Shown: in pieces, positions 18,364-32,777 of the stretch
How the letters are laid out: each line of letters opens with the position of its first letter
How positions within the stretch are numbered: the first letter of the stretch is position 1
From: Escherichia coli
GTDB taxonomy: Bacteria > Pseudomonadota > Gammaproteobacteria > Enterobacterales > Enterobacteriaceae
NCBI RefSeq assembly: GCF_013315695.1
Contig: NZ_CP054353.1
Length of the DNA: 64,000 nt
Strand: one strand, 5' to 3'
Program-made: the position numbers and the translations under genes
Notes under the pieces: generated by a model
Seen by the model: the letters and a program-made list of their open reading frames with translations, nothing else
Databases searched by the model: none
What the model was told of the DNA's origin: nothing

Positions 18364-18978
18364 ATGCAGCTTAATCATATTGTTAAAAGTCTGCTAATAA
18401 CGGGATTATTCACCACCAGTTCTTTGCCACTCCTCGCGGCGGAAGCCCCTAAAGACGCCACCGCAGCCACGCAACAAGCAAACAATTTACTCTACAACCA
18501 GTTGCCGTTTTCTGATAACACTGACTTTACTGATGCCCATAAAGGTTTTGTTGCCCCTATCCCTCAAGACGTGATTAAGGGCGAAAAAGGAAATGTTATC
18601 TGGGATCCACAACAATACGCTTTTATTAAAGAAGGTGATAAAGCCCCTGATACGGTGAATCCAAGTTTATGGCGTCAGGCGCAACTGATAAATATCAGCG
18701 GGTTATTCGAAGTAACTGAAGGTGTCTATCAGATTCGCAATCTCGATCTATCAAATATGACCATCATTGAAGGCAAAGAGGGTATTACCATCGTTGATCC
18801 CCTTGTTTCAGCAGAAACAGCCAAAGTGGGTATGGATCTCTATTACAAAAATCGCGACAAAAAACCGGTAGTAGCGGTTATCTACACACACAGTCATGTC
18901 GATCACTACGGTGGTGTTCGCGGCGTAATTGATGAAGCTGACGTTAAATCAGGCAAAGTTAAAATCTACGCGCCAGCC
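18364..18978 (+). pseudogene. Alkyl/aryl-sulfatase (YjcS/BDS1-like, metallo-beta-lactamase fold) N-terminal fragment, interrupted by IS1
   Basis: Signal peptide plus MBL motif THSHVDHYGG; reading frame runs directly into IS1 left end. Confidence 0.75.
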
Positions 18979-19033
18979 GGTGATGCTGCCAACTTACTGA
19001 TTTAGTGTATGATGGTGTTTTTGAGGTGCTCCA

Positions 19034-19309
19034 GTGGCTTCTGTTTCTATCAGCTGTCCCTCCTGTTCAGCTACTGACGGGGTGGTGCGTAACGGCAAAA
19101 GCACCGCCGGACATCAGCGCTATCTCTGCTCTCACTGCCGTAAAACATGGCAACTGCAGTTCACTTACACCGCTTCTCAACCCGGTACGCACCAGAAAAT
19201 CATTGATATGGCCATGAATGGCGTTGGATGCCGGGCAACAGCCCGCATTATGGGCGTTGGCCTCAACACGATTTTACGTCACTTAAAAAACTCAGGCCGC
19301 AGTCGGTAA
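19034..19309 (+). CDS. insA: IS1 InsA
   Basis: 91-aa [43 protein letters not shown]. Confidence 0.95.
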
Positions 19310-19731
19310 CCTCGCGCATACAGCCGGGCAGTGACGTCATCGTCTGCGCGGAAATGGACGAACAGTGGGGCTATGTCGGGGCTAAATCGCGCCAGCGCTG
19401 GCTGTTTTACGCGTATGACAGGCTCCGGAAGACGGTTGTTGCGCACGTATTCGGTGAACGCACTATGGCGACGCTGGGGCGTCTTATGAGCCTGCTGTCA
19501 CCCTTTGACGTGGTGATATGGATGACGGATGGCTGGCCGCTGTATGAATCCCGCCTGAAGGGAAAGCTGCACGTAATCAGCAAGCGATATACGCAGCGAA
19601 TTGAGCGGCATAACCTGAATCTGAGGCAGCACCTGGCACGGCTGGGACGGAAGTCGCTGTCGTTCTCAAAATCGGTGGAGCTGCATGACAAAGTCATCGG
19701 GCATTATCTGAACATAAAACACTATCAATAA
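19228..19731 (+). CDS. insB: IS1 InsB (transposase made as InsAB by -1 frameshift)
   Basis: 167-aa ORF overlapping insA; A-run slippery site upstream. Confidence 0.95.
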
Positions 19732-19746
19732 GTTGGAGTCATTACC

Positions 19747-20721
19747 GAAGCTCTCAATTTATGGGGAGATAAAGCCGAGATTATTCTCGCTCAACATCAC
19801 TGGCCAACCTGGGGCAACGATAACGTGGTCAAACTGCTTAAAAGCCAGCGTGATTTGTATCGTTACATCAATGATCAAACTCTGCGTATGGCAAATCAAG
19901 GGATGACCCGTGATGAAATTGCCGCAAACTTTAAACTGCCCTCTTCACTGGCTAATACCTGGGCGAATCGCGGCTATTACGGTTCGGTAAGTCATGACGT
20001 GAAAGCAACTTACGTGCTTTATCTCGGCTGGTTTGATGGTAACCCCGCGACGCTTGATGAACTGCCGCCAGAAGAAGGCGCAAAAAAATTCGTCGAGTAT
20101 ATGGGCGGTGCTGATGCCATTTTACAGAAAGCCAAACAGGATTATGACCAGGGTAATTTCCGCTGGGTTGCCCAAGTTGTTAGTAAGGTGGTGTTTACCG
20201 ATCCAAACAACCAGGCAGCGAGAAATCTGGAAGCTGATGCGCTTGAGCAGTTAGGCTATCAGGCTGAATCTGGGCCGTGGCGTAATTTCTATCTCACTGG
20301 CGCACAGGAATTGCGTAATGGCGTACAAAAATTACCAACACCAAATACTGCCAGCCCAGACACCGTGCGTGCGATGACGCCGGAGATGTTCTTTGATTAT
20401 CTTGCCGTCCATATTAATGGTGAGAAAGCGGCAGATGCCAAAACCGTGTTGAATTTCGATTTTGGTGAAGATGGCGGCACCTATAAAGTGGAGCTTGAAA
20501 ATGGTGTTCTCAATCATACCGCTGGTGTAGAGGCTTCGGATGCTGATGCCACTATCACTCTGTCTCGTGATGTATTGAACAAAATTGTACTGAAAGAAGA
20601 GACGCTGAAAGAAGCCACGGCCAAAGAAGATGTCAAAATTACTGGCAATGCGGAAAAACTCAACGAGCTGTTAGGTTATATGGATAATTTTGAATTTTGG
20701 TTCAATATAGTGACACCATAA
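19747..20721 (+). pseudogene. Alkyl/aryl-sulfatase C-terminal fragment (dimerisation and SCP2-like region)
   Basis: Open frame from IS1 junction through track ORF 19825..20721; same gene family as N-terminal fragment. Confidence 0.7.
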
Positions 20722-20767: not shown

Positions 20768-21865
20768 ATGGCTGAACGAAGAAAAACGCATCACTCATGG
20801 AAAACCCGCCGCGATATGGTTATTCGCGGCATGACGATTAGTTTGCCATGGTTTGCTTTTATCAATGTCAGTTTTGCATTGATAATTTTGCTGCGCCGTG
20901 TTCTGTTTAATGACCTTACTCCACCCTGGTTAAATGAAAAAAGCCTTATACATTCTATTGATATATCTGCAACGGGTATTCTGCTGATTTGCAGTGGTTT
21001 ACTACTCATCCCTCGGCAAAAAACATTACCTATCCAGGTGCTATTAGTTGCCCTGAGCCTGCTATGGTCATGGTGTAGTTATCACTTTATTGCGTACTGG
21101 ACGCTGCAGTTTGCTTATCCACTATGTGTATTATTAATGCTTAGTGGCGTTATCGCACTTTATTTCCATACCCCATCATTGCTCGCATTTGTCATTCCCT
21201 TATGGTTCACCACTCCAATAGCGAGTCTTATGCTTAATCAACAGATCAATATTCATTTTGCTGTTGTATGGTGTATTTTTTCACTGGCGCTATATGGTGG
21301 GCGACTCATTTTGTTACGTTGGTTTGAAGAAGCATGGGTACAAAACAGTTATAACAACCAGTTAATTAATCGCCTTGATGCATTAGCACATCGTGATCCT
21401 TTAACTGGGATAGCAAACCGACGTGCAATGAACAGTATCTTACACGACGCGATAGATAACGGCGGGTCATTTGCTCTTATTATGCTGGATGTCGATTTTT
21501 TTAAACGTTACAACGACACTTACGGGCATCCTGCTGGGGATCGTTGTCTAATACAAGTTGCCGACGCTCTACAGCGTTCAACTCGCCAGTCGGAGGATGT
21601 TGTTGTCCGTTATGGTGGCGAAGAGTTTGTCATCATACTTTTTAATGCAACATTGCCGGAAGCAGAGACGGTAGCAGCCAGAGTGAAGCAAGAACTTAAA
21701 CTGGCAGCTATCCCGCATCAGGCATCTGCTGTTAATGCATTCGTTACGGTTAGTCAGGGGATTACCTGTTCTGCTCCCGCAAAAACGGCTGAACAAATTA
21801 TTTCAGATGCCGACGCTGCGTTATACCGGGCGAAAGAAAGTGGGCGAAATCGATGGGAAAAATAA
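20768..21865 (+). CDS. Membrane-anchored diguanylate cyclase (GGDEF domain, GGEEF active site)
   Basis: N-terminal hydrophobic segments then RYGGEEF and DGC domain motifs; not a K-12 gene at this locus; start codon uncertain. Confidence 0.8.
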   Translation: MAERRKTHHSWKTRRDMVIRGMTISLPWFAFINVSFALIILLRRVLFNDLTPPWLNEKSLIHSIDISATGILLICSGLLLIPRQKTLPIQVLLVALSLLWSWCSYHFIAYWTLQFAYPLCVLLMLSGVIALYFHTPSLLAFVIPLWFTTPIASLMLNQQINIHFAVVWCIFSLALYGGRLILLRWFEEAWVQNSYNNQLINRLDALAHRDPLTGIANRRAMNSILHDAIDNGGSFALIMLDVDFFKRYNDTYGHPAGDRCLIQVADALQRSTRQSEDVVVRYGGEEFVIILFNATLPEAETVAARVKQELKLAAIPHQASAVNAFVTVSQGITCSAPAKTAEQIISDADAALYRAKESGRNRWEK

Positions 21866-22483
21866 TTAAATGATTCCATTCCTCTTTAGTATCCCTTTTA
21901 GCTTTGGTATCTGACATACAGCATCAGCAATCGCATTGATGTTCGGGGCATTATCCTGAAACCATTCGTGTCCCGGTCCCCATGTGCGCATGGTGCAGAG
22001 ATAACAGTCCACCAGCGTTAGTTGCTCTCCAAACACATACGGTTCAGCGGTCAATTGTGAATTCAGCCAGATATAAAGCGATTTACGATATTCAATAACA
22101 TTATTCTTTAACTGTTCGGGTGCGTCAGGAGCCCAACGCTTAGGGTAATCGGCGAAAGTGAACGTTGGATAGACATTAGCAACCAGCCAGACCAATAACC
22201 GTTGAAACTGCTAGCGTTCGGTGCGCCCAACCGGTGGCGCAAGGTCCGGGCGACGATCGAGAACCATCAATGCAATCGCCGCTGTCTCCGTCATAATCTC
22301 GTCATTTTCCAGCGCCAGTGTCGGAATCTGACACAACGGGTTCAGGGTTTTCAATAAATCGCGTGAAGTTCCCTCGTGGTCAAAACCACTGACATCAACG
22401 AACTGATAAGGAATATCAGCCAGTGTTAGCATCATCTCACTGATTGTAGTGCCCCATCCGGGTACGCCATACACCTTAATCAT
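21866..22483 (-). pseudogene. yncG: Glutathione S-transferase-like protein with in-frame amber (TAG) codon at 22211..22213
   Basis: Track ORFs 22211..22483 and 21866..22195 are in the same frame separated by a single TAG; together they cover GST N- and C-domains. Confidence 0.8.
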
Positions 22484-22749
22484 ATGCCCCTCACAATCTT
22501 TTAAAGATTAAGTCTAGGACAGCACACAGGTTAACCAGCAAAAGTATTTGTCATTTTTTCGTCAGTTGTATTATTCCCCTTCAGGATTGTAAGGGGATGT
22601 TTTGCATCGTTTATCGATAACGGGTAGGATGCTGCGCCGATAGTTTTATACCCATAAAGAATAATGGTGATAACTATCATCGCCAGGATGAATAAACATT
22701 GTTCATGGCAACTTATATGACTTTTTCATTAAAGCAATCAGGGAGAGCA

Positions 22750-24249
22750 ATGAGTAAACACGACACCGACACTTCAGATCAACACGCCGCGAAACGCCGC
22801 TGGCTTAATGCCCACGAAGAGGGGTATCACAAAGCGATGGGCAATCGCCAGGTACAGATGATCGCCATTGGCGGCGCGATTGGCACCGGCTTGTTTTTAG
22901 GTGCAGGAGCCCGACTGCAAATGGCGGGTCCAGCACTGGCACTGGTTTATTTGATCTGCGGCCTGTTTTCATTTTTTATTCTGCGTGCATTGGGTGAGCT
23001 GGTGTTACACCGCCCTTCCAGTGGCAGTTTTGTCTCTTATGCCCGTGAGTTTTTGGGTGAGAAAGCCGCTTATGTTGCTGGCTGGATGTACTTCATCAAC
23101 TGGGCGATGACGGGGATTGTTGATATTACCGCCGTCGCTCTGTATATGCATTACTGGGGTGCGTTTGGCGGCGTGCCGCAGTGGGTCTTTGCGCTCGCTG
23201 CGCTGACCATCGTTGGCACCATGAATATGATTGGTGTGAAATGGTTTGCGGAGATGGAGTTCTGGTTTGCGCTTATTAAAGTGCTCGCCATCGTGACCTT
23301 TTTGGTCGTGGGTACAGTGTTCCTCGGTAGCGGTCAGCCGCTGGATGGCAACGCCACTGGCTTTCATTTAATTACCGATAACGGCGGCTTTTTCCCCCAC
23401 GGTTTGCTGCCTGCGCTGGTGTTGATTCAGGGCGTAGTGTTTGCTTTTGCCTCCATTGAAATGGTGGGTACAGCGGCCGGAGAATGTAAAGATCCGCAGA
23501 CCATGGTGCCTAAAGCGATTAACAGTGTGATTTGGCGTATTGGTCTGTTTTACGTCGGCTCCGTGGTGTTGCTGGTTATGTTATTGCCGTGGAGCGCGTA
23601 TCAGGCGGGGCAAAGTCCGTTCGTGACGTTTTTCTCTAAACTGGGTGTGCCATATATCGGCAGCATTATGAACATTGTGGTGCTGACCGCTGCCCTCTCC
23701 AGCCTGAATTCAGGTCTGTACTGCACCGGGCGTATTCTGCGCTCGATGGCGATGGGCGGTTCCGCACCGAGTTTTATGGCGAAAATGAGTCGTCAGCATG
23801 TGCCGTATGCCGGGATTCTGGCGACACTGGTTGTGTATGTCGTCGGCGTATTCCTCAACTATCTGGTGCCGTCGCGCGTATTTGAGATTGTGTTGAACTT
23901 CGCGTCGCTGGGAATCATCGCTTCATGGGCGTTTATCATCGTGTGCCAGATGCGCCTGCGTAAAGCGATTAAAGAAGGCAAAGCAGCGGATGTCAGTTTT
24001 AAACTGCCTGGCGCGCCCTTCACTTCCTGGCTGACATTACTGTTTTTACTGAGTGTCCTGGTGCTGATGGCGTTCGATTACCCGAACGGGACTTATACTA
24101 TCGCGGCGCTGCCGATTATCGGTATTCTGCTGGTTATAGGCTGGTTTGGTGTGCGCAAACGCGTTGCTGAAATTCACAGCACTGCGCCAGTCGTCGAGGA
24201 AGATGAAGAAAAACAGGAAATTGTGTTTAAACCTGAAACGGCGAGTTAA
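22750..24249 (+). CDS. ansP: L-asparagine permease (APC family)
   Basis: Start MSKHDTDTSDQ inside track ORF 22699..24249; 499 aa. Confidence 0.9.
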   Translation: MSKHDTDTSDQHAAKRRWLNAHEEGYHKAMGNRQVQMIAIGGAIGTGLFLGAGARLQMAGPALALVYLICGLFSFFILRALGELVLHRPSSGSFVSYAREFLGEKAAYVAGWMYFINWAMTGIVDITAVALYMHYWGAFGGVPQWVFALAALTIVGTMNMIGVKWFAEMEFWFALIKVLAIVTFLVVGTVFLGSGQPLDGNATGFHLITDNGGFFPHGLLPALVLIQGVVFAFASIEMVGTAAGECKDPQTMVPKAINSVIWRIGLFYVGSVVLLVMLLPWSAYQAGQSPFVTFFSKLGVPYIGSIMNIVVLTAALSSLNSGLYCTGRILRSMAMGGSAPSFMAKMSRQHVPYAGILATLVVYVVGVFLNYLVPSRVFEIVLNFASLGIIASWAFIIVCQMRLRKAIKEGKAADVSFKLPGAPFTSWLTLLFLLSVLVLMAFDYPNGTYTIAALPIIGILLVIGWFGVRKRVAEIHSTAPVVEEDEEKQEIVFKPETAS

Positions 24250-27817: not shown

Positions 27818-28321
27818 TTATTGATAGTGTTTTATGTTCAGATAATGCCCGATGACTTTGTCATGCAGCTCCACCGATTTTGAGAACGACAGCGACTTCC
27901 GTCCCAGCCGTGCCAGGTGCTGCCTCAGATTCAGGTTATGCCGCTCAATTCGCTGCGTATATCGCTTGCTGATTACGTGCAGCTTTCCCTTCAGGCGGGA
28001 TTCATACAGCGGCCAGCCATCCGTCATCCATATCACCACGTCAAAGGGTGACAGCAGGCTCATAAGACGCCCCAGCGTCGCCATAGTGCGTTCACCGAAT
28101 ACGTGCGCAACAACCGTCTTCCGGAGCCTGTCATACGCGTAAAACAGCCAGCGCTGGCGCGATTTAGCCCCGACATAGCCCCACTGTTCGTCCATTTCCG
28201 CGCAGACGATGACGTCACTGCCCGGCTGTATGCGCGAGGTTACCGACTGCGGCCTGAGTTTTTTAAGTGACGTAAAATCGTGTTGAGGCCAACGCCCATA
28301 ATGCGGGCTGTTGCCCGGCAT
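27818..28321 (-). CDS. insB: IS1 InsB
   Basis: Identical translation to other copies. Confidence 0.95.
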
Positions 28322-28515
28322 CCAACGCCATTCATGGCCATATCAATGATTTTCTGGTGCGTACCGGGTTGAGAAGCGGTGTAAGTGAACTGCAGTTGCC
28401 ATGTTTTACGGCAGTGAGAGCAGAGATAGCGCTGATGTCCGGCGGTGCTTTTGCCGTTACGCACCACCCCGTCAGTAGCTGAACAGGAGGGACAGCTGAT
28501 AGAAACAGAAGCCAC
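28240..28515 (-). CDS. insA: IS1 InsA
   Basis: Identical translation to other copies. Confidence 0.95.
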
Positions 28516-31946: not shown

Positions 31947-32024
31947 TTAAAACAGTGAAAACAACAGCGCCACCGGGAAACTCATCGGCCATGTTGCCCC
32001 CACCAGAAAGGCGCTTAAGAAACG
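31947..32024 (-). pseudogene. ortT: 3' remnant (last 25 codons) of small toxin gene ortT (ydcX), 5' part removed at IS1 junction
   Basis: Minus-strand frame from the IS1 junction reads RFLSAFLVGATWPMSFPVALLFSLF-stop, matching OrtT C-terminus. Confidence 0.65.
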
Positions 32025-32079: not shown

Positions 32080-32355
32080 GTGGCTTCTGTTTCTATCAGC
32101 TGTCCCTCCTGTTCAGCTACTGACGGGGTGGTGCGTAACGGCAAAAGCACCGCCGGACATCAGCGCTATCTCTGCTCTCACTGCCGTAAAACATGGCAAC
32201 TGCAGTTCACTTACACCGCTTCTCAACCCGGTACGCACCAGAAAATCATTGATATGGCCATGAATGGCGTTGGATGCCGGGCAACAGCCCGCATTATGGG
32301 CGTTGGCCTCAACACGATTTTACGTCACTTAAAAAACTCAGGCCGCAGTCGGTAA
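32080..32355 (+). CDS. insA: IS1 InsA
   Basis: Identical translation to other copies. Confidence 0.95.
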
Positions 32356-32777
32356 CCTCGCGCATACAGCCGGGCAGTGACGTCATCGTCTGCGCGGAAA
32401 TGGACGAACAGTGGGGCTATGTCGGGGCTAAATCGCGCCAGCGCTGGCTGTTTTACGCGTATGACAGGCTCCGGAAGACGGTTGTTGCGCACGTATTCGG
32501 TGAACGCACTATGGCGACGCTGGGGCGTCTTATGAGCCTGCTGTCACCCTTTGACGTGGTGATATGGATGACGGATGGCTGGCCGCTGTATGAATCCCGC
32601 CTGAAGGGAAAGCTGCACGTAATCAGCAAGCGATATACGCAGCGAATTGAGCGGCATAACCTGAATCTGAGGCAGCACCTGGCACGGCTGGGACGGAAGT
32701 CGCTGTCGTTCTCAAAATCGGTGGAGCTGCATGACAAAGTCATCGGGCATTATCTGAACATAAAACACTATCAATAA
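32274..32777 (+). CDS. insB: IS1 InsB
   Basis: Identical translation to other copies. Confidence 0.95.

Follow-up and report, generated by a model that had tools for sequence, protein, structure and literature searches.

A single in-frame amber codon divides yncG, a gene of the glutathione S-transferase (GST) family, in the 64,000-nt stretch of Escherichia coli DNA analyzed here (hereafter the window). Is the gene lost, or is the stop an error, a codon that is read through, or the new end of a shorter but useful product? A chance test is inapplicable to one substitution, and the question put to the codon itself was whether its base is real. The reading that we consider very probable is an ordinary nonsense pseudogene, in which a single CAG to TAG change would make yncG a loss-of-function allele in one clonal lineage. 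The pseudogene status is already known, as RefSeq flags the locus in both MS 21-1 and MSB1_4I as a pseudo 'glutathione S-transferase family protein' and notes the 'internal stop'; in an older GenBank record of MS 21-1 the halves appear as separate proteins, EFK19457.1 (90 aa) and EFK19456.1 (109 aa).

Identity and surroundings of the locus

The locus is assigned to yncG because the L-asparagine permease gene ansP provides a synteny anchor: it lies directly upstream of yncG also in K-12, O157, CE10, SMS-3-5, GF131 and 536, and the divergent intergenic region between the two genes measures ~266 bp. The 618 nt of the window gene matched annotated yncG in 4,606 of 5,426 complete E. coli genomes, mostly at 90–95% identity, with at least 80% of the query covered in 4,510 genomes. 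Among the matches listed, yncG was the annotated feature under the match wherever a feature was present. The first-pass annotation had named the gene yncG, and both its place beside ansP and its nucleotide identity of 92–94% to most E. coli alleles bear this out.

On the other side, the stop codons of yncG and of a convergent MASE5-GGDEF gene abut (TAA/TTA, window 21860–21870), leaving zero intergenic bases. A scan of positions 21300–22800 revealed no terminator-like hairpin between the two genes and no promoter or terminator signal above shuffle expectation. With ansP divergent and the GGDEF gene convergent, yncG is therefore monocistronic, and no co-directional gene is open to polarity. Because the stops abut without a hairpin, the yncG and GGDEF transcripts should run antisense into each other.

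Three copies of IS1A lie within 14 kb of one another in the same part of the window (19034–19731, 27818–28515 and 32080–32777). The first splits an alkyl/aryl-sulfatase gene into fragments at ~18364–18981 and ~19741–20721, a gene that is intact in MS 21-1; the third is located ~55 bp from a remnant of ortT (~31947–32024) that has no N-terminus.

Table 1 Features of the yncG locus, Pfam domains of the read-through protein, and tRNA genes of strain MSB1_4I at classical suppressor loci.
Feature	Position	Strand	Score or state	Basis
ansP, L-asparagine permease, divergent upstream neighbor	22750..24249	+		RefSeq annotation of identical MSB1_4I sequence
yncG pseudogene, GST family	21866..22483	-		Translation; RefSeq 'internal stop' on identical sequence; Pfam GST_N/GST_C on read-through
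90 codons still translated: thioredoxin-like N-terminal glutathione-binding GST domain and linker	22214..22483	-		ORF list, Pfam
Amber codon TAG, codon 91, formerly CAG (Gln)	22211..22213	-		Sequence and allele alignment
Untranslated remnant: alpha-helical C-terminal GST domain, codons 92–205 and TAA	21866..22210	-		Weak Pfam, 1pmt alignment
MASE5-GGDEF gene, convergent downstream neighbor	20816..21865	+		RefSeq annotation, Pfam families in gene table
GST_N_2	residues 17–73		E = 1.1e-7	Pfam, read-through YncG
GST_N_3			E = 1.7e-6	Pfam, read-through YncG
GST_N			E = 4.6e-4	Pfam, read-through YncG
glnU/glnW			anticodon UUG, wild type	MSB1_4I
glnV/glnX			anticodon CUG, wild type	MSB1_4I
tyrT/tyrV/tyrU			anticodon GUA, wild type	MSB1_4I
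serU			anticodon CGA, wild type	MSB1_4I
leuX			anticodon CAA, wild type	MSB1_4I
trpT			anticodon CCA, wild type	MSB1_4I

One substitution accounts for the stop in yncG

The yncG frame runs from 22483 to 21866 on the minus strand, with an ATG start, 205 sense codons and a terminal TAA, and on translation its sole break is the TAG. The list of open reading frames contains the two halves as a 90-aa ORF starting with ATG (22211..22483) and a 109-aa ORF starting with TTG (21866..22195), which share a common frame. The amber codon results from a C to T change at yncG position 271 (G to A at window position 22213 on the plus strand). The base directly 3' of the stop is a C, in the local context CGC TAG CAG.

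We aligned the window gene with eight other alleles, from GF131, CE10, SMS-3-5, 2016C-3878, a K-12 DH1 derivative, O157:H7, 536 and MMC-J-0078. Codon 91 is CAG in seven of the eight, the K-12 derivative included, and CAA in 536; the TAG, absent from these orthologues, is thus derived. Only at position 271 do the window and MS 21-1 have a base that none of the eight shares. These results settle three points of the first-pass annotation. Its statement that two halves in one frame are split only by the TAG at 22211..22213 (minus strand) is exact by translation; the CAG to TAG transition that it proposed is a single change in the alignment; and its account of K-12 yncG as continuous, with glutamine at this site, agrees with the Gln91 (CAG) of the nucleotide alignment. 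A Dcm hotspot was considered as the cause of the transition and rejected: the ancestral context is GCCAGCA and not CCWGG, so deamination of 5-methylcytosine at a Dcm site does not explain the C to T change.

The allele is also a recombinant mosaic, identical to GF131 over positions 1–270 and to SMS-3-5 over positions 381–618. The last ~50 nt of yncG occur in two deeply different forms. The K-12/O157 type is followed by yncH and rhs or vgrG, and the window type by the GGDEF and sulfatase genes. Two 3'-end forms with differing flanks suggest that the 3' end of yncG contains an island junction.

The amber base is real and marks a young clonal lineage

The identical 618-nt allele is found in 5 of 5,426 complete genomes, namely MS 21-1, MSB1_4I and three human isolates with OZ54... 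designations. The exact 90-aa product is recorded on 913 contigs (1,529 index blocks of the collection), which include NCBI isolate assemblies (KTE and NCTC strains) and metagenomes, and all 15 further contigs that we inspected, metagenome assemblies among them, carry the TAG. A single-base difference is the type of change that a sequencing or assembly error could give, with C as the true base and yncG intact, but the T recurs in five complete genomes that come from separate projects in different countries (the USA and Australia among them), in the 15 contigs, and behind a truncated product seen on hundreds more. The probability of an error is vanishingly small, and the T at yncG position 271 is real and not a read error.

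The protein collection also holds an exact 205-aa YncG with Gln91, which could pass for a sampled intact progenitor. This record comes from seven contigs of at most 1.1 kb each, all of them ENA/Logan metagenome contigs. We rejected the record as a progenitor on inspection of its sources: all seven contigs have the TAG and match the window without a difference over 618 nt, and on look-up none of the seven loci translates to the Q91 query. Most likely the record stems from gene calling on short contigs with a code in which TAG specifies Gln. No intact progenitor of exactly the window allele is sampled in the protein collection. Protein-collection records produced by such TAG=Gln calling can pass for intact alleles and are not evidence for an intact ancestor.

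Over 24 kb (window 10000–34000), the window is 100% identical to and colinear with the chromosome of MSB1_4I, a rectal-swab isolate from Australia (NZ_LR898874.1, 2470989–2494989). The other four amber genomes match the same stretch at 100% identity but 90% coverage, presumably since the window's IS1 insertions are missing there. Of eight clade members sampled, five match the window exactly across a 3,273-nt span comprising ansP, yncG and the GGDEF gene; the remaining three show only a shifted alignment register, which probably reflects assembly indels, or an IS element inserted into the GGDEF gene. Over this span, the closest strains with CAG differ from the window at 27–42 sites. Near-zero differences within the clade indicate that the clone is young. 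Judged from these alignments, the TAG is fixed in a young, widely sampled clonal lineage of E. coli, which takes in MSB1_4I, MS 21-1, several KTE and NCTC strains, and recent human isolates; the nearest intact yncG alleles are those of CE10, SMS-3-5 and GF131. A literature search for the sequence type or phylogroup of this lineage returned no paper. The first-pass annotation had called the mutation recent, which holds only in evolutionary terms; far from being confined to one isolate, the mutation belongs to a lineage that has been sampled hundreds of times. The yncG TAG can thus serve as a clean one-base marker of this E. coli clone.

Several other features of the MSB1_4I genome came to light. 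IS1 seems to have expanded recently in MSB1_4I but not in its clone-mates. Its flhB has a TGA at codon 345 of 383 (segment L029, 42932–44080), truncating the flagellar export gate; ypdE has a TAA at codon 324 (L011, 16335–17372); dinI is frameshifted (L028, 11525–11769). In the yersiniabactin cluster, irp2 has a TGA at codon 1860 and irp1 carries a frameshift and a stop (L034, 42599–49001), and the two synthetases look non-functional by their sequences. A segment corresponding to about 1.1–2.0 Mb of K-12, window included, is inverted in gene order relative to the rest of the chromosome; the inversion spans the terminus region, based on the NZ_LR898874.1 positions of L011 (1.56 Mb), L028 (2.09 Mb), L010 (2.48 Mb), L029 (2.96 Mb) and L012 (3.66 Mb). 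A lambdoid prophage of ~47 kb with a frameshifted integrase is located beside serU, between zinT and mtfA (NZ_LR898874.1 ~3,104,250–3,151,283; L032 34251 to L034 32284), and just upstream of it a Mu-like prophage interrupts dgcQ (L032, 1–18344).

The stop separates the two domains of a GST-like protein

Pfam analysis of the read-through protein places the GST_N matches within residues 2–78, whereas GST_C, GST_C_2 and GST_C_3 give weak matches (E = 0.005–0.02) at residues 113–197. The N-terminal thioredoxin-like domain, a hallmark of the cytosolic GST superfamily, is therefore present, but it is no longer contiguous with GST_C in one polypeptide, as the TAG at codon 91 cuts the latter off. Since the stop falls between the two domains, the whole helical C-terminal domain is lost. 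The nearest solved relatives of YncG are two-domain beta-class GSTs. In GSTs, the hydrophobic substrate site and a large part of the dimer interface are contributed by the C-terminal helical domain, and isolated N-terminal domains expose a hydrophobic interdomain surface and are generally unstable. With the helical domain removed, the 90-aa remnant is expected to be inactive or unstable. The first-pass annotation foresaw either a pseudogene or truncation to the thioredoxin-like domain, in keeping with the Pfam boundaries on the two sides of the stop.

The function of the intact protein is itself sparsely documented. PMC8228696 cites earlier work in which YncG showed no GST activity when tested cell-free. 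Overexpression of yncG in K-12 raised the H2O2 MIC five-fold in one screen (PMC8228696), and yncG may thus not be entirely without phenotype.

yncG is repeatedly lost in E. coli

Roughly 15% of the complete E. coli genomes lack a match to yncG altogether. Two of the alleles in our alignment are also broken: in strain 536, a 1-nt insertion leads to a TAA at codon 59, and an 18-nt deletion is present in addition (segment L008, 1501–2101); in MMC-J-0078, an 11-nt deletion is accompanied by stops (L009, 1501–2107). RefSeq lists both as pseudogenes, the former 'frameshifted' and the latter 'frameshifted; internal stop'. A 61-nt query for the 536-type deletion matched ~455 genomes, a number that mixes alleles with and without the 18-nt deletion. 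Many further truncated YncG proteins from E. coli and Shigella fall into the protein cluster of the 90-aa product, although some of them are partial sequences at contig ends. Natural E. coli can do without yncG and have lost it repeatedly, and the TAG allele adds one more data point to its dispensability; otherwise this allele matters little.

Suppression, restart, and a functional fragment

The lineage could still make useful full-length YncG if the stop were suppressed or leaky. A supE-type tRNA would insert Gln, the exact ancestral residue, and in this the first-pass remark that the codon would be read through in a glutamine amber-suppressor background is sound. The C-terminal half is also free of further lesions, and the base after the stop is a C; UAG followed by C is reportedly a comparatively weak termination context. 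The tRNA genes of MSB1_4I speak against suppression. We examined, via the annotation, the glnU-W-V-X operon, tyrTV, tyrU, serU, leuX and trpT, and all of these classical amber and ochre suppressor loci are wild type, which answers in the negative, for these loci, the first-pass question of whether the strain carries a supE-type suppressor tRNA. The four tRNA-Gln genes (segment L012, 34999–35509) have the anticodons ttg, ttg, ctg and ctg, and a supE-type CUA is absent among them. The scan covered ten 49-kb segments of MSB1_4I, with the tRNA-Lys loci and the rest of the chromosome lying outside, and the two prophage tRNA clusters within these segments contain no CUA anticodon; the window itself has no tRNA genes. 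The other internal stops of MSB1_4I are TGA in flhB, TAA in ypdE and TGA in irp2, so there is no amber bias and no sign, among these three genes, of an amber-tolerant background. In E. coli, stop codons are typically read through at a basal rate well below 1%, and the absence of further lesions downstream of the stop is expected from the zero differences over 3.3 kb in the clone. A small fraction of full-length YncG, made by near-cognate tRNA-Gln read-through at UAG-C, is possible on general grounds and expected to be small, but a suppressed or leaky stop that sustains useful YncG is highly improbable. It is exceedingly improbable, in turn, that translation restarts past the TAG to give a separate C-terminal-domain protein. 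A 109-codon ORF with a TTG start does begin 16 nt past the stop and was once deposited as hypothetical protein EFK19456.1, but it is not annotated in current RefSeq. Its TTG at 22195, the sole restart candidate, was rejected for want of a Shine-Dalgarno-like purine run (upstream sequence cagtttcaacggtta), and the next in-frame ATG follows ~70 codons further downstream. We know of no activity for a GST C-terminal domain without a G-site. The first-pass reading of a nonsense mutation stands on this point as well, the stop being derived rather than ancestral and followed by no credible restart site.

The remaining alternatives give the mutation an effect of its own. In one, the 90-aa thioredoxin-fold fragment is functional, for instance as a small glutathione-binding or glutaredoxin-like protein, and is kept by selection. 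This would account for a fragment that contains the whole GST_N domain, has an invariant sequence in all sampled members, and persists in a successful lineage, represented by hundreds of samples. The sequences of ansP and the GGDEF gene on either side, however, are just as invariant, so recency explains the invariance of the fragment, and the general instability of isolated GST N-terminal domains counts against it as well. Moreover, yncG of 536 stops earlier, and some genomes have no match at all, a pattern that speaks against a need for any part of the gene. We regard a selected fragment as very unlikely. Equally slight credence is due to the proposal that the TAG has a regulatory side effect on the GGDEF gene or, alternatively, that the 90-aa fragment has an activity of its own. 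In the regulatory version, the premature stop would leave the last 345 nt of the yncG mRNA untranslated and open to Rho-dependent termination, and less antisense transcription would then enter the diguanylate cyclase gene. If true, the yncG nonsense mutation would act on c-di-GMP signaling instead of being a neutral loss; the antisense effect on the GGDEF gene is speculation.

An ordinary nonsense pseudogene remains the preferred reading, and yncG in the window is best read as a loss-of-function allele. Gln91 would have become an amber codon through a C to T change at yncG position 271 in the ancestor of a single clonal lineage of E. coli. Translation would since have ended after 90 residues, keeping the thioredoxin-like domain and dispensing with the helical domain that in GSTs forms the substrate pocket and most of the dimer interface. 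The loss is probably neutral, and the allele has survived because the gene is dispensable and the lineage young. No sampled member of the TAG lineage has acquired a second disabling mutation, which fits recency and may also be compatible with continued use of the 90-aa product.

Comparison with known systems

The closest reference is K-12 YncG (b1454), an uncharacterized GST homologue that resembles the window gene in its ansP-adjoining locus, its 205 codons, and 92.4% nucleotide identity. Its two-domain GST layout is that of the window read-through protein. Besides the TAG in place of CAG at codon 91, the window gene differs from K-12 by 17 amino acids, and the two loci differ downstream, where MASE5-GGDEF in the window takes the place of yncH and rhs in K-12; the last ~50 nt of the window gene diverge from K-12 where the flanking region changes.

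Among solved structures, YncG is homologous across both domains to the beta-class Proteus mirabilis GST B1-1 (1pmt; E = 7e-14, residues 4–200) and is also related to E. coli Gst, another beta-class enzyme (1a0f; E = 2.5e-11). The relationship to the beta class is distant: the PGSCSL motif of 1pmt is aligned with PGWGTT in YncG, a segment that lacks the cysteine. We take the cysteine of PGSCSL to be the catalytic Cys10 of the beta class.

Strains 536 and MMC-J-0078 have inactivated the same gene independently of the window allele. Their alleles contain indels and multiple lesions, and their decay is therefore older, whereas the window allele has one clean nonsense substitution and is otherwise undamaged. 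Laboratory amber alleles propagated in supE44 (glnV44) hosts belong to the same class of change, CAG to TAG, restorable by a tRNA-Gln with a CUA anticodon. Unlike these hosts, MSB1_4I retains the CUG anticodon in both glnV and glnX, and its other classical suppressor loci are likewise wild type.
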